This document shows positions 176 through 56,441 of a stretch of 64,000 nt of DNA, one piece after another (the first letter of the stretch is position 1; every line of letters starts with the position of its first letter). Both the position numbers and the translations under genes were made by a program. The DNA comes from Anolis carolinensis (taxonomy: Eukaryota): contig NC_085841.1 in assembly GCF_035594765.1 (NCBI RefSeq), forward strand, positions 75,501,574-75,565,573. The letters run 5' to 3'. The notes under the pieces are model-generated. The model had not been told where the DNA came from, searched no databases, and saw only the letters and a program-made list of their open reading frames with translations.

Positions 176-570
176 CAAGAACCCAGTTGTGGACAGAGGC
201 CATCAAACACATACCAGCTCTGACTGCCATACAGTAGCAATTGCACATGAATAGTCTGTTAGGGAACAATCCTTCAGTCACCTACTTCTCCTTTAACTAT
301 GATAATAAATATAGACTGTGCCAGCTCAGAATTTGGAAAGTTGCATTCTCTCTGTACTTCCCATGGTCTTGTTTGACATATTTTGATGCTTGTCGAGTAT
401 TTTTAGAACAACGTCACTATGGAAAAATATTTTGTACAGTGGTCTCATTTGTTAGGCATAAAGATTGTATCCAGATATTTTTTTTAAATAAAATCTAGAT
501 AGGAAATGTATGGTGAAGTCAGTCTTAATCTAAAAACAGTTCTACAAGAATGCCTTTCTTTTATTTGTAG

Positions 571-726
571 CTTTGAAGATCTGAGTAAGAAGTGGGGTTT
601 GTGGCTTCATGAAATGGAGGAAAGGATGAGCACAGAAGCCTTGGGTGAGAGCAAACAACACATCCCTGAAAAGAAGAATGAGGTGAAGAAAGTGGAAGCA
701 TTTCTGCATGAAATTCTGCTTGCAAG
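571..726 (+). CDS. SYNE1: SYNE1 exon w1 (156 nt, phase 2-2)
   Basis: tttgtag|CTTTGAAGAT...GCAAG|gtatac; FEDLSKKWGLWLHEMEERM...EILLA. Confidence 0.92.
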
Positions 727-1520
727 GTATACAGTGTACTTTACCAGTTTATCTCTCTTCTGTTTCCCTTACAGTGGTTATATGCTACTGGCTACAATGA
801 TGTTAAATAGTTTATTTTTGCAACAACCGAAGCCCAGCACCCTGTAAAATTGTTTCTTCAGACTGAAAAACAAAACCAGATTTTGAATGGTTATGTACTG
901 CATAATCCTTTTTGTTTGAAAATAGTTTGAAAATTGTTTAGTGCACTTTGTTTATTTCATTAGGAAACACATGTTATCCATATGGCATGTGTCAACTTCA
1001 GCAATATGTTTCTAGTATGTCTGAAGAAATTACTAAGAAAGGTTTCGTGCTGTGGTCTAAGCAGGGTGAACAGAGAGTGACCCATGGATTACATAAGACC
1101 CCAGGGCCATTTTCCACCCCATTCTACCATTCTCATTTGGGGGAGGGGGAGGAAGAGATGATCTCGCTAAGGCCAAGTTAGTAGAGGTTCCTTATAATTT
1201 TGAATGAATGATTCTTTCGGTTGTAGCATTCAACTGACATCGGCTATGGTCCCATCTACACTGACTATATAATGCAGTTAGGTCCTGTTTCACTTACAGA
1301 GCCACATTTTCAGACACTGGAACACATCAGTGGTTTTCATTATAATGACTAAAATTTTGCTCATGTATTTTATAGTAAATTATTGCCCTTCACATCTGAA
1401 ACACAATTAATTTACCTCCTATGTGCTGTTTGTATTTTTTTCATACTCAGAATTTTATTTATATAGCTACATTTATAACTCAGCTGCTCTTCTTCCCTTC
1501 TCTTTACATTTCTTGTTCAG

Positions 1521-1812
1521 AGAATCATTTGATAAACTGACTCAAAAGGCTCAAATTTTAAATGAGAAAGGATATAGTGCTGGGATTGAAACCCGCCTTG
1601 CATCTCAGCATTTTTCGGCTTATCAGAATCTAATCAAGTCAGTAAAAGAGAAACTGAAAACCTCCCAGATGGCCCTCCAGGACCACCAAGCTTTGGAAGA
1701 GGCTGTGCAGAGTATGTGGAGCTGGCTGAAGGATGTGCAAGAAAAGTTGGCATCTGCAGAGGGCACCACCGGTAACAAAGCTGTTTTAGAGAAACGCCTC
1801 TTGCAAATTCAG
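1521..1812 (+). CDS. SYNE1: SYNE1 exon w2 (292 nt, 2-0)
   Basis: ttgttcag|AGAATCA...ATTCAG|gtaaag; ESFDKLTQKAQ...EKRLLQIQ. Confidence 0.93.
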
Positions 1813-1964
1813 GTAAAGTAACAAGTAATTGCACTGATTATACCAGAAATATTGGAATCTGGAAGAAACTGGATATACCCCTTTTCTTGTGTTGCTTTTC
1901 TGGACGTACAAATGATTTCTACTTTTTTGTAGAATGAAAACATTTAACATTTTTTTATTTTCAG

Positions 1965-2137
1965 GACATCCTTTTAATGAAAGGGGAAGGGGAAGTTAAG
2001 TTAAACATGGCTATTGGCAAAGGTGACCAAGCCATCAAAGGCAGCAATGAAGAAGGTCAGAAAGAGATAGAGAACCAATTGCAAACATTAAAAGATCTCT
2101 GGAACAGCATTATCAGCACTTCGGTGAGCTGTCAGAG
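1965..2137 (+). CDS. SYNE1: SYNE1 exon w3 (173 nt, 0-2)
   Basis: ttttcag|GACATC...CAGAG|gtaagc; DILLMKGEGEVKLNMAIGKG... (absent from ORF track). Confidence 0.93.
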
Positions 2138-3066
2138 GTAAGCTCTTTGAGTTAATGCATGGCCAAAAATGTGACCATAATTCTGAAAAGCGATTGAACA
2201 AAGAAAAAATAATGCTCTGTAGTGTTCTGTGATTTTGGAAAGTCAAAGTTCTCAAATGGGTTTAACTTTATTTTTAAACCTTATTTTAGTATTGGTATTA
2301 ATGTTTGGTCTGTGTAGTTCAATATATGTATTTTAATAGTATTATATTTTATCTGTGTGTTTTAACCAAGATATGCACCACTATGAGAAGAGGCAGGTAA
2401 CAAATAAAATTATTTAAATAATGATAAGAGGAAACCAGAGACTGCTGCTTACCAACCTTACCACCTATTTTCTTGCTCAAAATTGCCCAAAATACACCTA
2501 TGAAATATTAAAGAACATTGTTCCATAACACTCTAATTCACAGCAGTGCTGAATTTAATTTTCTTAAGACAAGGATGGGCAAATGTCAAAGGTTAAGGAG
2601 TTACATTAGCCTCATCATTAGACCTTGAAGAGTTGCACTTCTTCCATGCTTGCTTTGAAAAAAAATTGAAGTGTTTCTTGGCCTGGAAGTCCTATTTTAG
2701 GAGAGATTGAGAATTTTTTTTTGTTACTATCAGCCATTTTATGCCTGGGAGAAGCCTTTTTACAGCAGGAAGTAGCTGAGAAGTCATTTGGTGACCAGCT
2801 CCTGTTTAGAATTAAGGTGTGTTCTGAGTTGTTGTTTGGTTTTTTTTGTTTTGTTTTTTTTAAAAAACTCAGATATAGTTAGCATTTGGTTAAAATGTCT
2901 TGTATGCTTTCTAGAAAACATTTGTGGATTTTCAGGAAAAAAATTGCAAAATATAAAATATTTAGTCCTAGTGATATATAAAAAATGGCCCTGGGAACCT
3001 ACTTGGTAGATCCCATCTTGTAGACTAGTGACATTTTCATCTTTTTGTGTGTCTCTTCAATGTAAG

Positions 3067-3376
3067 TTTATTGGATTCTGTGGTTAATCAATGGAATGAC
3101 TATCTGGAGAGGAAAAGTCAGTTGGACCAGTGGTTGGAGTCAGTAGACCGTAAAGTGGAAAAGCCTTTGGATCCACAGAATGACTTGAAAGAAAAGTTTT
3201 CCCAACTGGACTATTTCCAAGCTGTAGTTTCAGAAATGGAAGACCACTCTAAGGATCTGCATCAGCTGGTAGGGAAAGCAAGAGAACTACATGAGAAAAC
3301 AGAGGATGATTCTTTCAGAGAAGATGTTCAAGAAGAGCTGAAGACACAATTCAGTGACATTACAACTGTGGCCAAG
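3067..3376 (+). CDS. SYNE1: SYNE1 exon w4 (310 nt, 2-0)
   Basis: aatgtaag|TTTATTG...GCCAAG|gtaatt; LLDSVVNQWNDYLERK...ITTVAK. Confidence 0.9.
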
Positions 3377-8095: not shown

Positions 8096-11000
8096 CTAAA
8101 TAGTTTTGGACCAAAAGCAGGCAACAGCAACCGCATTGTCTGTAGCTTTAAACAACTCCTCCTCCGTACATGAGGCAGGGCATTGTGGGCAAGCATACAT
8201 ATGCTGAGTTGTTTGTTCAGCTCCACAGTCACACAAGGTGGAGGATTCCTCCAGGTAGTGCCACCTTGCCAAGTTGTCTTTTGATCTGCCCACTCCACTT
8301 CTGAGTCTGTTCAGGGACTTCCAAGTTGCCCATTCTTGGTTTGCCCCTGGAGGAAGACCCTCTTGGGGGGCCATCCAGTTAGAATTGCCAGGTTTAGCTG
8401 CCCAGAGGGACACCCTTGCTGCTGCTGGAGGAACATCAAGAGGAGTGGTGGTTCTCATGAAGCCCTTCCTTGATGTGAGTCTGGTGGGAGGAGGGTGATA
8501 GCCATGCAGTGGGTGGCTTTCACAATGTTCGACCTTTTTTCTCTCACCGTTAGCAGTGACTTCCCGTCGCACGTCAGGAGGGGCAATGCCAGCTAACTTG
8601 TAGAGTTTATCAACAGGTGTAGGTTTAAGGCATCCCATGATGATTCTGCATGTTTCATTCAGTGCTATGTCCACCTGCTTTGCATGGGCAGACTTGTGCC
8701 AAACAGGACAGGCATACTCTGCAGTTGAGAAAGACAGGGCCAGGGCTGATGTTCTTATTACTTGTGGGTCTGCTCCCCATGCGCTGCCAGTCAGTTTCCG
8801 CAGGATGTTATTGCGTGCAGCTACTTTGTGCTTGGTGTTCATGCAGTGTTTCCTATATGTTAGTGTTCGGTCTAAGGTGACACCAAGGTATTTAGGATGG
8901 AAACAGTGTTCGAGCTCTTGGCCTTCCCAAGTAACTTTCAGTTTCCTGTTGGCTTCGCGGTTACGTAGGTGGAAAGCACACACTTGTGTCTTGGAAGGAT
9001 TAGGCTTCAGGTGGTTCTCTTTGTAGTAGCTGGAGAGATCTTTCAAGGCATTAGTGAGTTGCTTTTCAACTGTTTCAAAATCTTTTGCTTGTGTTGTAAG
9101 GCCAAGGTCATCAGCATATATAAAGCTCTTTGTGAGTGGAGGTTGTGGCTGATCGTTCGTGAAGATATTAAATAAGGTCGGTGCAAGAACGCTGCCTTGG
9201 GGTAAACCATTTTTTGCCTCCTCCATCTGCTTTTCTGGCCCTGAAACTCCACATAGAAGCTGCGGTTTTCTAAGAGGGTCTGGACAGTTTTTGTGAAGTC
9301 AAAGTCCCGGGTGATATGGTAGACTTTATGCAGCATTTTTCTATGTTGCACCGTGTCATAGGCTGCCGTAAGGTCCACAAAGACTGTTCCTGTAATGCAG
9401 CCTTTCTCATAGCCTTCCTCGATATGTTCAGTCAGATGAAGAATTTGACCTGTACAGTTTTTCCCTGGTCTGAAACCTGCTTGTTGTTCAATAAGCTTGG
9501 GTTCGATAACAGGTCCTAGTCGATTTAATAGCATCCTCTCATAGACTTTATATAGATGACATAAGAGGGAGATTGGTCGATAGTTCCTGGCATTAGAGGC
9601 ATCTTCACCAGGTTTTAAGATGGCAATTATCTTAGTTTTCCTCCATGCTCTGGGAATCTGTTTGTGTGCCAAGCATTGATTGTAGAATTTCAAAAGCCAG
9701 TTTTCAGCTTTGGGGCCCAAGTGTTTGATTTGCTCCATCATCAGGTCATCTAGGCCAGGTGCTTTACCAGTCTTGCATCGCTTGATGGCTTCTCTGAGTT
9801 CTTTCAGGTTTAGAGGAGAAGACAACTGGTGGGTTTCAAGTTCTGGCACCCTGTTGATTTTCATCTTTATTCTGCTGCAGTTGGTTTTCCCATTCTGAAT
9901 TAGCTGGTGAGCTATCTGATCTGGTGTCACGTTCGCGTGTCCAGGGTTGACCAGAGGGTCACTATCCAGGCGTCTCAGCAATTGCCAGGCTTTTCGGCTA
10001 CTCTTGGACATGTCCAGGTTCTCAAGCAGCTCTATCCAACTGTCTTTCTTAGCATTAGCTAAGGCTGTAGATAGTTTTTGGCCTGCTGCTATAGTCCCAT
10101 CACTGTATGGGTTCTCTTGAAATAATCTGAGATATTCTTGTAGCTGATTTAGTGATTCTTCGTTTAGGCCTGGTAGGTAGCTTGTGCGACAACCTCTAGG
10201 GATTGAGAGCCTTGAGGATCTTTTCACAGCTTCTACAAACAGGTCATAATTTTCTATAGAAGGTTCTATATCAGAAATAGCAGCTTCCAAGGTCTCTGTA
10301 AACTTTGTCCAGTTAGCTTTATTGAAGTTATATCTTCTGCGGAATGGGACACTTTTCGGTCTTACAGCTGCATATGCTACGCAGCATATTGGTCTGTGTT
10401 GTGTGTTAGGTATCGGGTTTAATACCCTTTTGGTGCATTGGTGGCTTATGCTTTCCTTTACAAAAAATCAGATCAGGGTTATAACCACGCTTCCATCGGC
10501 CACTATTAAATGATGGTGGTAATTTACTGTCATGAAGGAGGCTCATTCTACTATTGTCGGCCCACGTTAGAACTGCTTCGCCATTTCTATCATCTTTGTC
10601 ATAGCCCCAGACACAGCTGTGGCTATTGAAATCTCCCACAACAAAATGGGCTTCATGATTGTGGCAACTGGTTGGGGGTGTAAAATAGAAATCAGCCCCA
10701 GGTGGTTTATAGAGTGATGATACGGTGCAACTATCAAGTTCCACAGATAAGATTTCAATGTTGTTCACTTCTGTGAGGGAAGTTGCAGAGATTGCTACAC
10801 CAGATCGTACAAAAATGGCACTGCCATATTGTCTGTGAGGTCGTTCCACTGACAGTTACATTCCAAGAATTTTTGGTCTTCTCATTGTGATGTCTCTGTG
10901 TGTTTCCTGTATACATAGGATGTCACACGAGATGTCCTCAGACATTTTGGCTAATAGTTCTTCCTTAGCAAGTGACAAACCTTCTATATTAATAGACATA

Positions 11001-11468: not shown

Positions 11469-11605
11469 CAGTGGTTCTCAACCTGGGGTCTCCAGATGTT
11501 TTTGGCCTTCCTACTCCCAGAAATCCTAATAGCTGGTAAACTGGCTAGGATTTCTGGGTTGTTGTAGGCCAAAACATTTGGGGACCCAAAGGTGGAGAAG
11601 CACTG
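11469..11605. mobile_element. hAT-type MITE (Charlie/MER20-like ends), nested in a Tigger-like MITE starting ~11358
   Basis: TIRs CAGTGGTTCTCAACCT / AGGTGGAGAAGCACTG; imperfect 8-bp TSD cactagta/tactagaa; same family as 56333..56441. Confidence 0.7.
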
Positions 11606-19486: not shown

Positions 19487-20559
19487 GTTAGTAGAAAGTC
19501 CATACTTCAAAAATTTTAACAGCATTTCTACATAAAAAGCAAGGCATTTACATGCTCCATTTCACCTTTGTGAAATGGTACAACGTACTGTGTTTGGATG
19601 CCAAAGGGCTGACCCTCATCTACATTGACCTATGTGATCAGTGTAGAAGAGAATTCTGCCTAGCTTCTAAAATTGGACAGAAAGAGGTTTGTCCAGGGTA
19701 TTTAGTGTAATTAAGCCATTGTAATAATAAAACCAGGATTAATTGAAAATAGTACAGAAAACAGAAATAAAAGGAACACACATTTGTTGTCTTTCACTTG
19801 GTATAATTATTTTCCCAGGGCTTATTATAGAAAGTCCTTGCAGAGAAAAAGCCCACTGGAATGGAACTAACTTGGGGTACTTCCACACATACCTAAAAAC
19901 CACATCCAAATGGGTTAAAGTAACCCGCTTCAGCATGGGTTCTAGTCCCCACCCCCTCCCACAACCCCAGGATTTCCCTCCCGGAGTGGCTACATGCTAT
20001 CCCAATTGAAATCAGAATAGCATGAAGCCACCCCAAAGCCCCTGATTTACCCCCTACAACTTACTGAAAAGGTCCCTGGCCACCATGGAGCCTCTCACAT
20101 CCTCGTGCAAGAAAATGATGCCTGAGGAGATGGGAGGGTTGAGGAGGAAAATCCTTTGAGGGCTGAGGGGAGGAGTGGCTGCTTTCCTGCACCTTTGGGC
20201 TCCAGGAGCCCAAAGGTGTGGAATAGTAGTGGAGATTGACCCCCAGGAAACATGTCCCAGTACTCAGTCTCCACAGGCCTAACACCTCATAACTCCCAGA
20301 TCTTTCAAAGCTTGGATTACAAGTCAGGTCAATAAATGGCCCATTAAATAATCATATATGGCATTTGGCCTCATCATTTCATACTTGCACTTAAAGTGCT
20401 TGTTCTTTTTTGACACTTCTTTGGAATGACTACAACTAATTTCATAAGATCCAAACAATAGGTAGGGAGGGAGGGAGGGAGGTAGATAGATAGATAGCCA
20501 AGGTTTCTGCAAAGGCCAGGACTACTTTCACACATCTAAAACTTGTCCACCCACTCTGC

Positions 20560-21170: not shown

Positions 21171-21471
21171 TAGATGGAAGTACACATCCCTATGAAAACT
21201 CCATAATCAGCCTTATGATGATATGGTTGCAACTTGAATCAACCCACCCACTGATAACTGTGATAAAGTATATCACTTTTGTTTCAGTCCTGAGCACTAG
21301 ATATGTCCAAAAATCATTTTGAATCTTATATCGGATTTATATCGGATTGTTCCCGCTTTTTGAGACGCATTCCGAGACGTTGTCTCATGGCGCAACTGGC
21401 AATGTAATTTGAACCATCGTTGGCCCATTCTCTAATTGTTTCTTAATGTTTTATTAATTTTTTCCCCCCAA

Positions 21472-21610
21472 NNNNNNNNNNNNNNNNNNNNNNNNNNNNN
21501 NNNNNNNNNNNNNNNNNNNNNNNNNNNNNNNNNNNNNNNNNNNNNNNNNNNNNNNNNNNNNNNNNNNNNNNNNNNNNNNNNNNNNNNNNNNNNNNNNNNN
21601 NNNNNNNNNN
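21472..21610. other. Assembly gap (139 N)
   Basis: Run of n. Confidence 1.
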
Positions 21611-22270
21611 CCCATCTCCCCGAAGGGACTCGGGGCGGCTTACATGGGGCCTTGCCCGATAAAACAATCAAATATCAAAATACAGCAATAAAACAGTTAT
21701 CCAATAAAAACATCAATTACAGTAAAAACAATCGTTAAAATCAACATAAAACATACAATATTAACACTGGAGACTAATTCATAGAACCCAGGCAAAGTGC
21801 AACATGTGCCGAAATGGGCCGAAATGGGGAAGGTAATTTCACAGTTGAAATGGACAAAGTGCAATATAGCATTGGCAACACCTCAAGAATGGGGCTATTA
21901 TAAAATGGGCAGATAGATCAGCCCGACACCAAATTAAGTATCAAAGGCCTTTTGAAAGAGCCAGGTTTTTAAGCTCCTACGGAAGGAGAGGAGGGTAGGG
22001 ACCTGTCTGATCTCTCTAGGGAGCGAGTTCCAAAGCCGGGGGGCCACGACGGAGAAGGCCCTCTCTCTTGTCCCCACCAACCGTGACTGCGAGGGTGGTG
22101 GGAGCGAGAGAAGGGCCTCCCTTGACGAGCGAAGAGAATGTGCGGGTTCGTAGGGGGAGATGCGGTCTCTAAGGTAGGTGGGTCCCAAACCATTTAGGGC
22201 TTTGTAGGTGATAACCTGCACCTTGAATTGGGCCCGGAAAGTAAATGGCAGCCAGTGAAGCTCCTTAAAC
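21611..22270 (-). mobile_element. 5'-truncated L2 LINE (ORF2 C-terminus and 3' UTR)
   Basis: ITYKALNGLGPTYLRDRI...RERAFSVVAPRLWNSLP...FRRSLKTWLF; 3' end GCCCCATGTAAGCCGCCCCGAGTCCC shared with 61288-61330. Confidence 0.85.
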
Positions 22271-22727
22271 CTACCTTGAATGGGAGCTTAGCGCAGCCTA
22301 ACATGGCTGCCGCTCCTCGGCCAATCAGAAGCTTCCACGATGGACGCAAAGATGGGGGCTAGGGTCCTCTGCGTCCATGTGGAAGATTGCCATAAAAGCC
22401 CGTTGTGTAGCCCGGGTGAGCCATTCTGGGCTGGGTTTTGTGCAGAGAGGGTGGTGGTCTGTAAACTGAGAGCAAGCAAGCCTCGTGTCTTGAGGGAGAG
22501 AGAGGGTGAAGGGGTTTGGAGGGGTTTGGAGAAGGGGTTAGGGTTTTGTTGCGGGTTCCTTCTCTTGTGAGTGTGTTAATTTTGGGTAGCGCTCAGCTAT
22601 TTAGAGCTGTGAATTCCAGGGTTATTTTTTCCATATTATTTTTAAAAAATCTAGCTTTCAATTTCGTTAAGAATAGTTCTTGCTGGATCATAGCATATCT
22701 TTGCAGAATCAGTAGTCTATTTCATTA

Positions 22728-23652
22728 AGAAGGCATTGCCTTTCAGGCTTGTGGGATCACATAGCCAGAGACACCATTGATTTTTCCAGTGTTCTTGCTT
22801 ACAAATATAGCAAGGGAATTTATAGTTTTCAAAGTATCTGTGCACTCCTTGCCAGGGCATTGGCCAGCTTGCTCACAGGTACAATACCAAAGGAAGGCAA
22901 GGCATTGCCTTTGTGGCTTGTGGGATCACATAGCAAGACACACCATTGATTTCCAGTGTCCTTCTTGCTTAAAAATATAACAAGGGAATTTCTAGTTTTC
23001 AAAGTTTCTTTGCACACCTTGCCAGAGCATTGGCCAGGTTGGTCACTGGTACATTAACAAAGGAAGACATTGAGTTTGGGGCTTGTGGGAGCACATAGCA
23101 AGACATAGCATTGCATTCCAGTGTCTTTTTTTCCTAAAAAAATTACAAAGGGAATCTCTAGTTTCCAAAGTTCCTTTGCACACAGTGCCTGAGCATTGCC
23201 TGGCTTGGCCACAGGTACATTTCCTAATGAAGGCATTGGGTTTGGGGCTTCTTGGAGCGCATAGCAAGACATAGCATTGATTTCTACTGTCCTTTTTCCT
23301 TAAAAATATAACAAAGGGAATTTCTAGTTTTCAAAGTTACTTTGCACACCATGCTGGAGCATTGCCTGGCTTGGTCACAGGTACATTTCCAAAGGAAGGC
23401 ATTGAGTTTGGGGCTTGTGGGAGCACATAGCAAGACATAGCATTGAATTCCAGTGTCCTTTGTCCTAAACAATATTACAAAGGGAATCTCTAGTTTCCAA
23501 AGTTCCTTTGCACACAGTGCTTGAGCATTGCCTGGCTTGGTCACAGGTACATTTCTTAATGAAGGCTTTGGGTTTGGGGCTTCTGGGAGCGCATAGCAAG
23601 ACATACCATTGATTTCCAGTGTCCTTTTTCCTTAAAAATATTACAAAGGGAA
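22728..23652. repeat. ~166-bp tandem repeat, about 5.5 copies, with A/B dimer structure
   Basis: Unit AAGGCATTG..GGCTTGTGGGA.CACATAGCAAGACA..CATTG..TCCAGTGTC...TTTGCACAC...TTGG.CACAGGTACA repeats near 22728, 22898, 23059, 23226, 23392, 23558. Confidence 0.9.
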
Positions 23653-24178
23653 AATCAGACACAGAAACAAAGTTACACAAGTAGAAGAAGGACTTTCACA
23701 TTAAAAAAAACACAATTGAACAGGAAATAAAACTTTCAAACCAGGAACAGGTTTCTTCAATTATTAAAAAAATAGTTTATTATAAAAGCTATAAAAATTC
23801 GCCAAAAATCGGAGGATACAGGAAACGTTCTGCAATTTGGTGAGCTAGGAGGGTTGAATGTGTTCTCCCACTGTACCAAATTTGATCAGGATAGCTCAAG
23901 AAATGAGAGCGGGGGAGCCCTGTAAAAGTCCCCATGGGTGCTGGGTTTTTTTTTTGGCGATTGCGCATGCGCGTCCGCCATTTTAGAAACATTTAGAAAC
24001 ATTACGAATTTTCAGAAATATCCGAATTTTTTGAGGGAAAAATCGGAAATAGTTTCTATATCGAAGCGCCGGCGCCCCCTACTTTAGAAACAATAATTGA
24101 AACATTTTTTTCATCGATCGGACATGCCTACTGAGCATATATAAACTAAAATGAAAATATCTGTGTTTCAGTATATTT

Positions 24179-24339
24179 CAGGGCCATAGCCAGAGGGATG
24201 AGGTTTAAAGTTCAACCCCCACTCAAAATGTGTCAGGTTAAAAAAATTGGTTTACTCATAAATTGGTTAACCAGTTAAAATTCATGAGTAAACCAGGAGT
24301 TGAACCCTCCCCCCCTCCCCCCGCCGGGCTATGGCCCTG
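24179..24339. mobile_element. Short MITE with CAGGGCCATAGCC TIRs
   Basis: CAGGGCCATAGCC ... GGCTATGGCCCTG, perfect 13-bp inverted ends; TSD unclear. Confidence 0.7.
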
Positions 24340-26453: not shown

Positions 26454-27724
26454 TGTCAAGAGTCAGACGCCAGTTAACAAACAAAACAGTTTATTCTGAA
26501 GATAAGCCAAAAATAACACAAAAACAAGCCATGCTATTTTCCCATGCTGGCATTCAATAAAAACTAAGGACGCTTCAATTCAGCTTAGAAGAAACAAATA
26601 GAGTTGACTGCAAGATAACATGCAAAATAAACGAAGGCTTGCAACTTTCCAAAAGCTGCAGAGTATAACAAAGTGCAAAAGCTTCTTTTAGCTCCAAACC
26701 GTTTCTGAAAACAGACAGCCGGCTCTGCAGAGTTAAAGGGACAGTTCCCAAAAGAAAAACAGCAAACTGGCTTAAAAACAAACAAACTAGAAGAGCAGTA
26801 AACTGCTTCCACAGTGCAGATAAAGCCGAAGCTTCAAAGGGATTATGAATAGCCGTCGTCAGGAGAATCCAAGGTCAGGTCGAGAGGCAGCAGCAAATTC
26901 CAGAAGTCAGAAGCCAGGAGTAGTCGTCAGTCAGGGAGCGTAGACAGAAGCCAGGTCAAATTCAATCCAAAGTCTGAAGAGGGTGCAGTCATCCAAACCA
27001 GATCCACGATAAGACACAGCGAGAGCCAAGCCAGATGGTATCAGCAGCTAGAAATAGTAATCAGAATGCAGTCCAAGGAAACCCACACAGTTCCATCCCT
27101 CTGCTGCAGAGCAGTCCCAGATAACTTACATCCGAATCACAGTCCAAGTCCAGTCTTCACGGAAACACAGAGATCCCAATGGCGCCTCAGCAACACCTTG
27201 CCACACGCAAAGTGCAATGGCCAAACATTCCCATTTTATTCCCCTTCCTCCTGGGTGACCAAACACTCACACCCAAACACCAGGTGTCCCAAATCTACTC
27301 AGAGTCCGAACTCCACACAGCTAGAGCTCGTGGATCTGGAGTACCTAGCAATTCATCGGAGTCCCAATCATCCTGCCCACACTTAGCCCCGTGAACACTT
27401 AAAGAACCATCCTCCCTTCTCCAAGCATCCCAAGTGGGATCAGCTCCTGCAGAAACCCCAGGTTCAGTAGTATCCATAGGCCCCAAATCCCCAGACATCT
27501 CTGGTGGCTGTGCCCATTCAGTGCCCACTTCCCCAGCCACCACCTGTTCCTCAGCATCCATTTCCCCAAACTCCCCATCTGAATCTTCCTCAGAAGATCC
27601 CCCATATAGCTCTCTAAGTCGCTTCCTGCACAACTCCTCCAGTGAACCCTCATCACGAGGGTTTTTTCTTCCTCTTCGGATCCCATCACCATCAACCATA
27701 ATCCCCGAAGGCGCAGTCACAACA
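26454..27724 (-). mobile_element. Solo LTR (Gypsy-like), 1,271 bp
   Basis: - strand TGTTGTGAC...TTGACA; 5-bp TSD tttca at 26449-26453 and 27725-27729; AATAAA near 3' end; homologous to 31388..32702. Confidence 0.8.
27295..27720 (-). CDS. LTR-encoded acidic protein segment (141 aa), function unknown
   Basis: Homologous to 31388..31898 with synonymous-biased substitutions; basic RRGRKNPR...RKRLRE motif followed by D/E/S-rich tract. Confidence 0.55.
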   Translation of the reverse strand: MTAPSGIMVDGDGIRRGRKNPRDEGSLEELCRKRLRELYGGSSEEDSDGEFGEMDAEEQVVAGEVGTEWAQPPEMSGDLGPMDTTEPGVSAGADPTWDAWRREDGSLSVHGAKCGQDDWDSDELLGTPDPRALAVWSSDSE

Positions 27725-28015
27725 TTTCATATGCTGTTCATGCATGGAAGAGCAAAGTCCCCCCCCCTCCTCCGGCGCTGGATAACTTTATTAAAGTTCA
27801 TATTTAGTGTTCTTGGGTAGAAATGTTCATCTGCACAAAAAGAAAGATGGTTTCACTAAAAAAGATTGTTTGATAATTTTGCACTATCATAATCTTTTTC
27901 ACAAAAGGCACAACATCTTCCAAATGTTTGTGACCATTCTTTCAACAGTTTGCCTCATTGTGTTAAAGCATTATTTCTTATCACAGTCAATCACAGTCAA
28001 GAAAATTTGTAAGTA

Positions 28016-29153: not shown

Positions 29154-29309
29154 AAATGGCATGAAGAAATAACAGTCTATAAAGATGAAGTTGAAGAAGT
29201 GGGACTATTAGCCCAGCAAATTCTGGAAGAAAGTAATACTTGTAGTGCGACTGGAAGACAAGCTACCCACCTTGCATCTCGATACCAAACCCTTATTCTT
29301 CATGTATTA
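29154..29309 (+). CDS. SYNE1: SYNE1 exon w18 (156 nt, 0-0)
   Basis: cctttag|AAATGG...GTATTA|gtgagt; KWHEEITVYKDEVEEVGLLAQQILEE. Confidence 0.92.
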
Positions 29310-29472
29310 GTGAGTTCTGAGTGAATATCCCATAATCCATCGTTTTTGTGCCATGGACATACTCTGGCCTGTCATTTATATCATGTGAATTCTAACTTTG
29401 AGATAACTTAATTTCAGCATCGGACCATGGGCAGTTTGCTTCAACTTGCAGTTTCTTCACTGAATTTCCAAC

Positions 29473-30339
29473 CAGGGCCGGTTGTTACTAGGCGGCCGCG
29501 GACGCGGCCGCCTCGGGCGCTGGCTGCTAGGGGCGCCATTCGGGCCTGACTTCCTGGTCGCGGCCGGCGATCGCCCGGGCGGTCGCCGGCCGCGACCAGG
29601 AAGTCAGGCCCGAATGCCCTAGCTGTGCTGTGCGCGTGCGCACAGCACAGCTAGGCCATTTTGCCCTTAGTAACAAACTAAGGGCAAAAATGGCTTCTCT
29701 GGCTGTGCGCATGCGCACAGCCAGAGAAGCCATTTTTGCCCTTAGTTTGTTACTAAGGGCAAAATGGCCTAGGTGTGCTGTGCGCACGCGCACAGCACAC
29801 CTAGGCCATTCGGGCCTGACTTCCTGGTCGCGGCCGGCGACCGCCCGGGCGATCGCCGGCCGCGACCAGGAAGTCAGGCCCGAATGGGCTATCTGCGCTG
29901 TGCCCGTGCGCACAGCGCAGATAGCCCATTCGGGCCTGACTTCCTGGTCGCGGCCGGCGATCGCCCGGGCGGTCGCCGGCCGCGACCAGGAAGTCAGGCC
30001 CGAATGGCCTAGGTGTGCTGTGCGCGTGCGCACAGCGCACCTAGGCCATTTTGCCCTTAGTAACAAACTAAGGGCAAAAATGGCTTATCTGGCTGTGCGC
30101 ATGCGCACAGCCAGATAAGCCATTTTTGCCCTTAGTTTGTTACTAAGGGCAAAATGGCCACGCTGGGCGGGGGCGGGGCCAACTGTGGCCCCGCCCCCCC
30201 TCACTAATCGCCCTGGCCCCGCCTCCCACGCAGCGTGGGAGGCGGGGCCAGGGCACGCTGGGCGGGGCCAGGGCGCGGGTGGCGGGGGCGCTTTTCAGCA
30301 CCCCCGCTTCCCATTAAAAAATATCTCCGGCCGGCCCTG
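29473..30339. mobile_element. hAT MITE, 867 bp, CpG-rich, built from nested palindromes
   Basis: TIR CAGGGCCGG/CCGGCCCTG; perfect 8-bp TSD tttccaac at 29465-29472 and 30340-30347. Confidence 0.9.
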
Positions 30340-30603
30340 TTTCCAACTAAGCTCTCCACTGGTCACATAACTGAAGAGAATGTCTATATTAAAAAATATT
30401 GGAAGAACCCAGGATTTTATTTGCATAGCATTTTGCAGATGTACACTAAATACTTCAACATTGCTAACCCCCCAAACCAAGATCCTTGATACAGTAGTCA
30501 GTACCATTGCATGGTGTTTTTGCGGAGCTTTATAAATATGCATAAGCAGATCAGTAAGACAGATGTTTATGTGCATGTGTGGTATGTGAAGATCCTCAGT
30601 AAC

Positions 30604-30686: not shown

Positions 30687-31387
30687 CTATAGACGTACAC
30701 ATGTTTCTGGGGATCATTGATCGTAGGGTGGGTAATTTCGCCAACTATCTGTGTTTCTGTTCATGGGGTCATAATGGCACATGTTCCAATTCTTTTTATT
30801 TTATTTTTTTGCAATGCTTGCATTTTCATTGTTCTTAGAACGTTTTTAGAGTTCAAGCCCCAGAACTTCCCAGCTCTCTGAATTGCCTCCACAAATGTTA
30901 ATACTTTCCACATTCCCTAAGATACATGGAGGCGTTTTTGCTATCTCCATGTACATATGGGGTTTGAAGATTGGACTGTTTTAGGCCCATATGGAGATCT
31001 TTATTTAACAAGAAAGAATAACTCAATTTCCAGTTTATGTCTATGCATGGGTAAATTAACATATTCCTGTAAAAATAACAGAGTATGTTGAGGCCCTGGG
31101 GACTTAGTCCTGTCCCTGCTCTGAGGTCTTACAGCTTTCGGGCCCAGCTCTTCTTGGCATGTCACCAGAATTGAGACAGTAGCTTTCACAGTGTTCTAAA
31201 TGTACAAGGTATTCAGAAGATATGTCTGTTCAGGGTTGGAGAGGCATATGATGTGTTGTGGATCAGGCCCATTTAAACAACCAACTGGACTCCCAACTCA
31301 CCATCCCTTTTCTTGCATATGAGGTGTGAAGAAAGCTTATATTATCCAGAGAAACAGAACAACATGCTTTACTCTAGGCACTGATAT

Positions 31388-31898
31388 TGAGAATGAGTCT
31401 TCTGAGGCTGTGAGTGATAATGGAGGGATCAGGAGAGGAAGGAAGAACCCTCGCGAGGAGGGCTCGCTGGAAGATTTACACAGGAAGAGAATCAGGGAGA
31501 TTAATGGGGAGTCTTCCGAGGAGGATTCATGTGGGGACTTGGGAGGGGATCTTGAGCTGGAAATGGATGCTGAGGAACCAGTGGTGACAGAGGAAGTTGG
31601 CATAGATTGGGCACGGGCTCCGGAGGATCTTGGGGAGGAATCTGGGTCCATGGATGCTGTAGATGCTGGAGAGGCTTGGGTATCTTCAGAAGCAGATCCC
31701 ACATGGTCTGCCTGGAGGAATGAGGGTAGTTCCACAGGTGTGGACAGAGTTGGGTTTGGGCAGGATGATGTTGATTCTGATGAGGAGTTTGGGACGCCTG
31801 ATCCTAGGGCGTTGGCTGTTTGGAGCTCAGATTCTGTTGAGAAACTTTGGACATCTGACCCTAGGGCGTTGGAAGTTTGGATGCCCAAGGAAACCTAA
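31388..31898 (+). CDS. LTR-encoded acidic protein segment (~170 aa inside the LTR), function unknown
   Basis: LTR part of ORF 31326..31898; aligns with 27295..27720 (GIRRGRKNPR.EGSLE, SSEEDS, EMDAEE, ADPTW.AWR, GTPDPRALAVWSSDS). Confidence 0.55.
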
Positions 31899-32702
31899 AT
31901 AAATTGGGGATGTTTGGCCACTATTCTTTGCGTGTAGCAAGGTGTTGCTGGGCGCCATTGGGTTTCCTGTACGTGATTCTGAAGACTGGCTTGGGACTTT
32001 GCAACAGATCTGCTGTTTGCCTTTGTTGCCTTGGCTTTTTGTGCCATCCCTTGACGTGGACCTTCCTGTGACGACTTCACCCTTTGGACCTTGGACTGAA
32101 TCTCGACTTGGCTTATCTCTTCACTCCCAAACTCGGCTTGGCATCGTTCTAATATCCGTGACTGTCTACCGTAGCTGACTGCTGGCTTCATTTCTGACCC
32201 TGACGCTGTTCCCTTATCCCGACTTCGGACCGGCTTGACTTCGCTACAACGCTACGCTCCTTTGGCTCCTGGCTTGGCTTCCGACTCTGCAGCGGCTTGC
32301 CGCTAAATCATCAGCGTTTTCCTGTTTTGTTTGTTTGTGCTGCTTTTGGCAAAGAGCTTTTAACCTGGTTTGGGTTTTTTCCTCAGTTTAGAATCGCTGC
32401 TGTACTCCTGGGTTTTGGGGAAAGTTTTGGGGCTTTGCAGTGATTTACCTTTGTTTGTTTTGCCATTTTAAGCCCATTTTGTGTCTTTGGGCTGAGTTCA
32501 AGTACTTTATGTTAAATCCGGATTATATCTCTGATTAATCCGGATTATATGCCAGTTCATGTTTTTGGTGTTTTTTCTGTTTTGACTGCTTAATAACACT
32601 GAAGGTTAAGTGTTTTAAGCCTCTGACAATTTACTGAGTTATTTTTGAGTTGTTACTTAAATAAACTATATTTTGCTCTCAGTTGGCATCTGACCTTTGA
32701 CA
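31388..32702 (+). mobile_element. Solo LTR (same family as 26454..27724), ~1,315 bp
   Basis: TGAGAATG...CTTTGACA; candidate 5-bp TSD gatat at 31383-31387 and 32703-32707; AATAAA at ~32660; 5' boundary uncertain by ~3 nt. Confidence 0.75.
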
Positions 32703-36147: not shown

Positions 36148-36215
36148 AATGCAGTCCACAATGTCATCCCATCTCTTCCCAAAAGAAGAGATGGGATGAC
36201 ATTGTGAACTGCATT
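36148..36215. repeat. 31-bp inverted repeat (hairpin), 1 mismatch, 6-nt loop
   Basis: aatgcagtccacaatgtcatcccatctcttc-ccaaaa-gaagagatgggatgacattgtgaactgcatt. Confidence 0.9.
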
Positions 36216-40990: not shown

Positions 40991-43140
40991 TCATCATCAT
41001 CATCATTTAATTACTTATTAATCTCCCTCCATCCAAGATGCTCTAGGCGATTTACAAGATAAAATTGTAAAGGATAAAAACATACATACAAATATTGAAA
41101 AAATTAACATAGATCAAAATCTCTAGTAAAGAGCCAGGTCTTGAGTGCTAGGGTAAAAGGCCCTAACTCACGCATGGCTCTCATATAGGGTGGCAAGGCA
41201 TTCCATAAGGCAGGGGCAGAAATAGAAAAACCTCTGCATCTGGTCCTTTCCAAGTGCACTTCTCTAGGACCCGATATATAAAGTACATTGCGTTGGGATG
41301 GTCATTGCAACCTCCGATGATGGGAGAAGGAGAGACGGTCCCTAAGGTACGATGTGCCCTGGCCGTAAAGAATTTTAAAGGTCAGAACTAGCATCTTATA
41401 TAGACCATGGTAATCAGTTGGAAGCCAATGCAAATGCTGCAGAACTGGTGTTATATGGCATTTCATGGGTGTTCTTGTGAGTAGCCTGGCTGCCGCATTC
41501 TGAACAATCCGGAGCTTTCGGGTCGTGGACATCGGAAGGCCAACATACAGGGCGTTGCAATAGTCCAGCCTAGATGTGACCGTGGCATGGATGACTGTTG
41601 CCAGAGCCTCATCAGATAGATAGGGTGCCAATTGCCTCGCTTGTCATAGATGGAAAAAGGCCTGTTTGCTGGCAGCAGCGACCTGAGCTTCCATTGTCAG
41701 CTGTGAATCCAAGATGACACCCAAGCTCTTAATGGTAGGCGAAGGAGATAGGGCAACACCATCGAAGGTGGGTAGCAAATGGGTCAAACCAATCGAGCAG
41801 CCATGCCAGAGAATCTCAGTCTTCGCCGGGTTCACCTTCAGTCTACTAGCACGTAGCCAGTTTGACAGAGCTTCCAGACATAAGAGGAAATTGTCTGGTA
41901 TTAACATTGCTCCAGGCTCCAAGTGCAGAAGGAGTTGGGTGTCGTCCGCATATTGATAGCAGTCTAGGCCGAAACTCCGAGCCAAACTAGCAAGGGGTCT
42001 AACGTAGATGTTGAAGAGAAGAGGGGAGAGAATTGCACCTTGGGGTACCCCACATAGGAAGGGAGATCTTTCAGAGACTTGATCCATATACTCCACACAT
42101 TGGCTCTGGTTTTGGAGAAATGAGTTGAACCAATTGAGGGCCTGACCGCGAACTCCGGACATGGCTAGACGGTGAATCATTAGATCGTAGTCAACGGTGT
42201 CAAACGCTGCGGTAAGGTCGAGAAGTACCAGTAGCGCTGATCCGCCGCTATCAGACTGGCAATGAAGTTCATCTGTAATGGCAACCAGGACTGTTTCCGT
42301 CCCTTAGCCAGGGTGGAAACCTGATTGGAAAGGGTCCAGGCCAGCTGTATCATCCAAAAATTGTTGCAATTGTCCCAGTACAGCCTGCTCTCTCATCTTA
42401 CCTAAGAATGGAAGGTTAGAGACAGGACGGTAATTAGCAAGGGTCATGGGATCCAAGCTAGGCTTCTTTAGCAAGGGACGAACCCTTGCCTCTTTTAGGT
42501 TGTCCGGGAAGACCCCCTGTTCAAGAGAGCCATTGATTATATTACTCAATGGATCAAGTAGATCTTCCAGGCAGCTCTTCACCAATCAAGAGGGACACGG
42601 ATCAAGGGAACAGGTGGTTGGTTTTGCAACAGCCAGGATTCTAGCAACATCTTCCCTGTCAAGCGGAGTAAATCAGTCAAAGATAGGCCCACTAAGCGGC
42701 CACAAAGTCTCAAGCTCTCTCAAGGTATCAACTGTAGGGGGCTGTTCCTGCCGAAGCACAGTGATTTTATCAGTGAAAAACTTCTGGAATGCCACTGCTG
42801 TAAGAGCCGTGGTTGCTGGGTTTTGGACTAAGGGAGCCAGACTGATCAAAGCACGAACTTTTTTGAATACTTGTGCTGGGCGCGATCTAGCAGAGGCTAT
42901 TAAGGAGGAATTGTAAGATTTTTTAGCGTCCTTAATGGCTGATTCGTAGGACCTGCAAAAAGTCTTGAAAGCGGACACCGACACCTCGTCGGGTTTCCAT
43001 CACCACCGGCATTCCAGCCGCTTTCATGCTTGCTTCATCGTCCATAGCTCATTAGTGTACCAGGGGGAGCGATTCTGGCGAGGGCGAAGGAGGCGTCTGG
43101 GAGCAATCTCATCCAAGGCAGCCAACAAACTGACATTCCA
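40991..43140 (-). mobile_element. 5'-truncated L2 LINE with disrupted RT (~2.15 kb)
   Basis: NYRPVSNLPFL, QSGF, GVPQGAILSPLLFNIY, QYADDTQL, SRLDYCNALY in broken frames; (GAT)n tail at 40991-41006. Confidence 0.9.
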
Positions 43141-56332: not shown

Positions 56333-56441
56333 CAGTAGTTCTCAACCTGACATCCCCAGATGTGTTTGGTTTACAACTCCTAGGAATCCCAGTCAGTTTA
56401 GCAGCCAAAAACATCTGGGGACCCCAGGTTGAGAACCACTG
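56333..56441. mobile_element. hAT MITE, 109 bp
   Basis: CAGTAGTTCTCAACCTG / CAGGTTGAGAACCACTG; perfect 8-bp TSD gcttagaa. Confidence 0.9.

Follow-up and report, generated by a model that had tools for sequence, protein, structure and literature searches.

A recently inserted hAT-type MITE of Anolis carolinensis whose interior is an array of alternating and mutually mirrored hairpins

In a window of the Anolis carolinensis genome (the whole stretch of DNA analysed, 64 kb in length), an element of 867 bp (29473-30339) was found whose interior is built of palindromes that are themselves arranged in larger palindromes. Most probably (we put this at about 0.7), this is a young, multi-copy, non-autonomous hAT element whose interior was shaped by template switching in the history of its family.

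The element starts and ends with a perfect 9-bp terminal inverted repeat (TIR), CAGGGCCGG, located at 29473-29481 on the plus strand and at 30331-30339 on the minus strand, and is flanked by a perfect 8-bp target-site duplication (TSD), TTTCCAAC, at 29465-29472 and 30340-30347 (both on the plus strand). The TIR starts with CAGGG, which fits the hAT terminal motif YARNG (PMC3014272), and an 8-bp TSD is likewise a hAT feature. Judged from the list of open reading frames (ORFs), the element is short and without a transposase gene, as MITEs are, its sole long ORFs (195 and 185 codons) being read-throughs of GC-rich palindromes. Local hairpins cover 717 of its 867 bases, and its observed/expected CpG ratio is 0.90 (0.25 for the window). 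The first-pass annotation, made from the letters alone, had proposed a hAT MITE with an exact TSD and almost undecayed CpGs, and it proved right on each of these points. By these sequence features, the element is a non-autonomous hAT-type MITE.

Inside the TIRs are two subterminal regions: the left one (29482-29534) harbours a hairpin with 11-bp arms at 29490-29513, while the right one (30160-30330) harbours GC-box hairpins at 30169-30198 and 30210-30254 together with G-quadruplex-pattern runs on both strands, and is where most contigs of other animals align. Between them lies the array (29535-30159), in which 13 overlapping hairpins follow one another as A-B-C-D-C'-B'-A'-E-A-B-C-D-C', exactly as first annotated. 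The sizes of the modules (80 bp for A, 48 bp for B and E, 46 bp for D and 31-41 bp for C, depending slightly on the cut point in the overlapping junctions) are broadly those first estimated, with somewhat different values. The first block is composed of A1 (29537-29616, plus strand), a long hairpin whose two arms each carry an ETS-like 8-mer; B1 (29613-29660, plus strand), with an NRF1-like and alternating purine-pyrimidine centre; and C1 (29659-29689, plus strand), a short hairpin of 13-bp arms and a 5-nt loop with a YY1-like motif at each end. It is followed by D1 (29689-29734), a perfect palindrome of 46 bp, and by C2', B2' and A2' (29734-29886, minus strand), an inverted A-B-C block that differs from the first at 3 of 159 positions. 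Beyond the diverged hairpin E (29883-29930), a third A-B-C block (A3, B3 and C3; 29927-30079) is again direct, on the plus strand, and D2 plus C4' (30079-30159) complete the array. An Rfam search at gathering score returned 0 matches in the whole window, strong BLAST matches were confined to the element itself, so that the window holds no further copy, and exact patterns for the A and C modules each had 0 matches among metagenome contigs.

Higher-order palindromes had been placed by the first-pass annotation at ~29711, ~29907 and ~30101, and mirror centres were located accordingly at 29711.5, 29906.5 and 30101.5. The first mirror, centred in D1, spans 352 bp (29536-29887) with 3 of 176 pairs mismatched; the second, centred in E, spans 506 bp (29654-30159) with three mismatched pairs outside its 6-nt centre; the third, in D2, spans 116 bp (30044-30159) and is perfect. 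The C loop, the asymmetry of A and the centre of B all flip with orientation, in agreement with the flipping loop asymmetries described earlier. Direct copies at a spacing of 390 bp, the period also reported at first, differ at 6 of 234 positions; however, this period arises because two mirrors stand 195 bp apart (2 x 195) and is thus not independent evidence. The 159-bp A-B-C block is present three times (direct, inverted and direct) and turns at D and E; as the orientation markers flip there, inversions are required at both. This higher order, as read from the letters, would most simply represent an inverted triplication of the 159-bp block.

Alternatively, one or two inversions could have created a palindromic unit of 390 bp, with the third block added by a plain tandem duplication, through slippage or through unequal exchange involving other copies or sisters, and template switching acting at most locally on small hairpins. 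Twice the mirror spacing equals the 390-bp period, as this scenario would have it, Tandem Repeats Finder reports periods of 75 and 120 bp, for Xstir/Xmix and miDNA4 the literature describes tandem arrays that have grown within a MITE (PMC12628747), and symmetry by itself cannot tell a fold-back from a tandem duplication of the last block. Yet flips of orientation such as those at D and E are impossible for head-to-tail duplication, and block 3 has fewer differences from block 2, its mirror partner (1 in 159), than from block 1, its direct partner (4 in 159), although an ancestral B2 would also explain the latter. Overall, tandem growth is considered an unlikely origin of the third block. The earlier claim of fold-back rather than slippage is hence upheld in that inversions are needed and block 3 resembles its mirror partner more closely, but not in its exclusion of slippage, since a tandem copy of a palindromic unit gives the same pattern.

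Among 24 public runs, 20 matched some or all of the stretch, in each case in the form of short-read contigs; the empty site and the family copies were examined in four runs, from four studies with one animal each. In all four, a single unbroken contig joins 29464 to 30340 and thereby skips 875 bp, equal to the element plus one target copy. As the target is single in these empty alleles, the 8-bp repeat flanking the element is a true target duplication. In run X11 the empty-site contig has a depth of 57.5 and is unbroken, which makes a second allele in that animal improbable, as it would probably have broken the contig. The insertion is thus recent, and is polymorphic or private to the assembled animal; the youth implied by the first-pass annotation is borne out by the site being empty in four of four runs.

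From 512 to 3,364 contigs per run matched the stretch, nearly all of them on the element, consistent with the many dispersed copies that characterize a MITE, and single contigs on the element had about 2-70 times the depth of the flanks (11 hand-picked values), although such depths and counts are not usable as copy numbers. In run X7, 18 contigs pass from the right TIR into other flanks. In run X1, at least ~54-65% of the exact 31-mers of the element were estimated, from sampled words, to occur elsewhere in the genome. Furthermore, in animals lacking the insertion, contigs cross the A-B-C, C-D-C' and A'-E junctions, the listed pieces that do so carrying 3-13 differing letters each. Other family copies join C straight to A, carry internal deletions and commonly have a C loop that is one base longer; a full family copy other than the element could be reconstructed from the short-read contigs in no case. 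Since the module junctions exist in animals without the insertion, the array arose in the history of the family, before the insertion. The iterative template-switch amplification proposed at first is therefore retained as to mirror copying, which the flips and the compensated changes described below favour, but the modules are family-wide and so were not grown at this locus.

The ends of the family copies vary in their own right. At 29494-29536, other copies keep the left TIR but differ in subterminal sequence, and some carry another short hairpin after the left end in place of module A. The GC-box hairpin at 30210-30280 shows ~10 times the contig depth of the array modules and continues into several different sequences, which suggests that a larger set of sister families shares the right end and has other interiors.

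Could the insertion be real, with its interior mis-ordered or over-extended by the assembler from reads of many family copies? The window is scaffolded and contains a 139-N gap, only 333 of the 595 31-mers in the array are distinct, and none of the contig pieces listed for the four runs spans the whole array, so that the number and order of modules at the locus come from the assembly alone; stretches of the array that no listed piece crosses were counted as evidence neither way. Against this, at the TIRs and TSD the element joins exactly onto the sequence of the empty allele, module junctions of three types were seen in independent contigs, and the copies differ in a consistent, compensated way that repeat collapse would not create. 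An assembly artefact is accordingly regarded as quite improbable.

The five modules, distinct according to the first-pass annotation, reduce to two alternating ancestral hairpins, X (B, D and E) and Y (A and C). A 48-column alignment of B, D and E has a mean identity of 90%, and the three form one X hairpin. The relation of A and C is more distant: their outer arms match at 12 of 17 positions, and at 6 of 11 beyond the 6 shared junction bases. Family variants, aligned by eye, bring the outer end of A to a match of 10 of 11 with C in each of the four runs; in run X11, 13 contigs extend the C arm with letters that match the inner arm of A at 23 of 30 ungapped positions (also by eye), the loose-end consensus on which this homology is based having a median length of 14, an agreement of 0.82 and a far end drawn from few contigs. 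C is thus probably a Y hairpin of the A type that lost its centre. So reduced, the array alternates as Y-X-Y-X, each step being 120 or 75 bp long, and all 12 junctions share an AATG/CATT core. Purines and pyrimidines alternate over 16 bp at the centre of five of the six X copies.

The arms of the X hairpins have diverged in a compensated manner. In the covariation set of six X copies of B, D and E (23 stem pairs, 136 cells), 98.5% of cells are paired and two are unpaired. Six of the 23 stem pairs have changed on both arms (10 cells), as compared with one one-sided change, which is a wobble. Likewise, each arm of D is one base short, at mirror positions, eight of the nine differences between B2 and E fall in compensated pairs, and the two differences between D1 and D2 together make up one compensated pair. 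Six random substitutions yielded two compensated pairs in 54 of 300,000 simulations, and the covariation score was reached by 0 of 500 shuffles, a figure that gives no probability because the six X copies are few and related. Variants at the mirror positions 29837/29856 and 29896/29917 were rejected as evidence of compensation, for a contig of one arm fits either arm. Transversions, which pass through no G-U intermediate, account for four of the six double changes and favour copying of DNA over selection on an RNA stem. The changes on both arms point to arm-to-arm copying at the DNA level, that is, template switching, though selection on the shape of a DNA hairpin could be another source of them. 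Compensated stem changes and inverted loops are the outcome of template-switch mutation as described, for RNA genes, in PMC8794818, and both are shared by the element.

Under the template-switching reading, the following course of events is envisaged. A hAT transposase acting in trans would have moved the element to its present site, as suggested by the TIR, the TSD and the empty allele. Copying would have provided a single-stranded template, either on the lagging strand or while the gap left by excision was being repaired (PMC3014272 mentions gap repair at donor sites), on which the nascent strand could fold back on a hairpin or jump to the opposite strand. Short switches would overwrite one arm with the other, leaving compensated changes and perfected small hairpins, while long switches, for which the common junction core or a palindromic module would serve as the priming site, would copy a block backwards and then return, leaving an inverted triplication. 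All such switching would predate the insertion and belong to the history of the family.

Upstream of the element, a host exon of 52 codons (156 nt; 29154-29309, plus strand) encodes a spectrin repeat of a nesprin-1/SYNE1-like gene. The assignment to SYNE1, made in the first-pass annotation, is consistent with a long exon elsewhere in the window whose features match nesprin-1/SYNE1-type clusters (best score 0.98). From the exon end at 29309 it is 163 nt to the start of the element and 225 nt to that of the array, close to the ~230 nt first given for a double-stranded RNA of ~250 bp, and a stem of that length is the predicted minimum-energy fold. The folding energy is -877 kcal/mol versus -417 +/- 8 kcal/mol for 20 shuffles, and pairing is predicted for 96% of array bases in the best fold, or for 88% when only local hairpins are allowed; by either fold, the array in pre-mRNA would be mostly double-stranded. 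Within the element, no simple cryptic splice motif was found, and one ATTAAA is present, at 30313. RNA stems are expected to show more wobble relative to double changes.

It could be argued from the extent of this pairing (96% or 88% of the array), and from the position of the array 225 nt past a splice donor, that the hairpins were selected at the RNA level, as double-stranded RNA in the pre-mRNA serving editing, small RNAs or splicing. However, RNA stems would not be expected to show a single wobble beside 10 double-changed cells, and the allele is missing in four of four other animals, which also argues against a host function or regulatory device. Selection at the RNA level therefore appears highly improbable, and a role as a host regulatory device unlikely; until shown otherwise, the element is to be taken as a passenger for its host gene.

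The modules also carry motifs that we take to be promoter-factor-like, namely NRF1-like at the X centre, YY1-like at the ends of C and ETS-like in the arms of A, with a GC box at the right end, all by consensus motif. The motif set comprised eight promoter factors and was chosen after the sequence had been seen. Three of the eight motif classes are present in the collapsed core, as compared with 2 of 20,000 shuffled and re-palindromised cores, and letter-permuted motif sets gave three classes on the real core in 0 of 20,000 cases. When strict forms were used, only NRF1 (core) and the GC box (right end) passed, and the CpG-containing forms of YY1 and ETS were absent from the array.

A further proposal, compatible with template switching as it concerns why the modules persist, is that the doubled NRF1/YY1/ETS/GC-box-like sites mimic a CpG-island promoter, keep the copies open and unmethylated and aid their mobilization. 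The rarity of three motif classes in both controls speaks for such mimicry, and so does an adjacent pair of NRF1-like and strict YY1 motifs (~23961-23984) in an unrelated hAT-like element of the window (21298-24130), ~150 bp from the end of that element, where the NRF1-like site is the only other one in the window. In addition, a palindromic Xenopus MITE is described as enriched, at open chromatin, for NRF-family sites, which may not be those of NRF1 (PMC12676858). On the other hand, the choice of motifs followed inspection of the sequence, YY1 and ETS have no strict CpG-containing match in the array, a high CpG content would be expected already from youth plus correction between arms, and recent transposons are given as an exception to unmethylated CpG-rich DNA (PMC9842680). 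We thus hold promoter mimicry to be doubtful, and equally tentative is a combined reading of a self-symmetrizing interior, in which template switching doubles and repairs the motifs and so maintains a renewable NRF1/YY1/ETS/GC-box array that is unmethylated and accessible to transposase.

Several other repeats populate the window. Termini matching the Anolis families SPIN/hAT-N1 and TcMar-N7 are present, by motifs given in PMC3014272. Short SPIN/hAT-N1-like elements are located at 11469 and at 56333-56441, the latter with a perfect 8-bp target duplication. The hAT-like element at 21298-24130 has an 11-bp TIR that matches at 9 of 11 positions and a target duplication matching at 7 of 8; within it lie the 139-N gap, a LINE-like fragment at ~21940-22290, and 5.6 tandem copies of a 166-bp unit (22729-23652), and it resembles cargo-carrying hobo-N families. 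A small MITE at 24179-24339 has a 13-bp TIR that also starts with CAGGGCC, and is probably older, as its flanking 8-mers differ. Two copies of one repeat, 69% identical and in opposite orientation (27138-27725 and 31384-32001), lie one on each side of the element, at ~1.7 kb and ~1.0 kb from it; each has an acidic open frame of 140-190 codons, and the two could pair weakly in pre-mRNA. Isolated perfect hairpins at 20190-20218 and 36157-36206 have arms of 14 and 22 bp and no obvious TIR or TSD, and long minus-strand frames at 8099-10855 and 41305-42999 look, by eye, like the reverse transcriptase/endonuclease of two different non-LTR retrotransposons.

Features of the element recur, separately, in known systems. 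The Tip100-like hAT MITEs MER45 and MER91 have CAGGGCCGG-type termini and internal hairpins (MER45-like), and by this description resemble the element in both respects. Bacterial BIME arrays of REP palindromes alternate palindromic units as the element does, but are bacterial and tied to HUH transposases. Closer to hand, the orphan non-autonomous A. carolinensis families hAT-N6_AC, N7 and N8 share the 8-bp TSD, the YARNG motif and the non-coding interior, and, compared by termini, target and size, appear to be the nearest of the families tabulated in PMC3014272. There, hAT-N6 is listed with 810 bp, near the 867 bp of the element, and with 964 copies at 0.3% from the consensus. The TSD of the element fits the hAT-N6_AC target preference NTTRYAAN at five of six specified positions; six of six are matched by the consensus of the sequence beyond the right TIR in the 18 X7 contigs (low agreement, 0.43). 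In its TIR the element departs from hAT-N6_AC, whose listed TIR, CAGAGSCGGYCC, is 12 bp long: the element differs at position 4, which is G at both ends, and its complementarity stops at 9 bp. The main text of PMC3014272 contains neither 'palindrom' nor 'hairpin'.

MITEs with amplified or palindromic interiors are already known in Xenopus and zebrafish (PMC12628747, PMC6004289, PMC9659126, PMC12676858). In Xmix/Xstir and miDNA4 of Xenopus and Angel of zebrafish, an internal segment has been amplified into arrays, and models of stem-loop or fold-back replication were proposed for them (PMC12628747, PMC6004289, PMC9659126). As described in these sources, they belong to Kolobok/T2 (TTAA target) or Tc1/mariner rather than hAT, and form tandem arrays or single inverted repeats, whereas the element has alternating hairpins with second and third mirror levels and compensated divergence. 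Assignment to the T2-MITEs (Xmix/Xstir), which need a TTAA target and an AGGRR terminus (PMC6004289), was rejected on account of the 8-bp target and CAGGG terminus. Harbinger-N12A_XT and Kolobok-N2_XT (342 and 496 bp) are vertebrate MITEs of other superfamilies with internally repeated palindromic sequence, some in open chromatin, and were compared by description rather than by internal layout (PMC12676858). The direct-inverted-direct blocks with palindromic junctions of ODIRA inverted triplication (PMC10766186) are also found here, in the three copies of the 159-bp block with D and E at the junctions; ODIRA, however, is described for large copy-number variants and needs a replication origin in the block and a hairpin-capped intermediate, whereas the present block measures 159 bp and is part of a mobile element, and an origin within it is unlikely. 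In the literature searched, mostly outside subscription journals, no account was found of a hAT array that alternates two hairpins with multi-level mirrors and compensated divergence. The family may already be catalogued in repeat databases.

Were promoter mimicry true, it would constitute a new route for a transposon to escape silencing; on the self-symmetrizing reading, the motif pair in the element at 21298-24130 would be a case of convergent mimicry, and each intronic insertion would deliver a portable open-chromatin cassette plus a double-stranded RNA of ~250 bp. Assemblies made from clones or short reads may contain too few elements of this kind. A near-perfect palindrome of ~500 bp that is both mobile and polymorphic would allow fragility, editing and splicing to be compared between carriers and non-carriers. 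If template switching in the history of the family is indeed the correct explanation, a young family with known ancestral states would offer many natural replicates of the process, and the rates of hairpin repair and of inverted triplication, usually inferred from single loci, would become measurable in a vertebrate germline.
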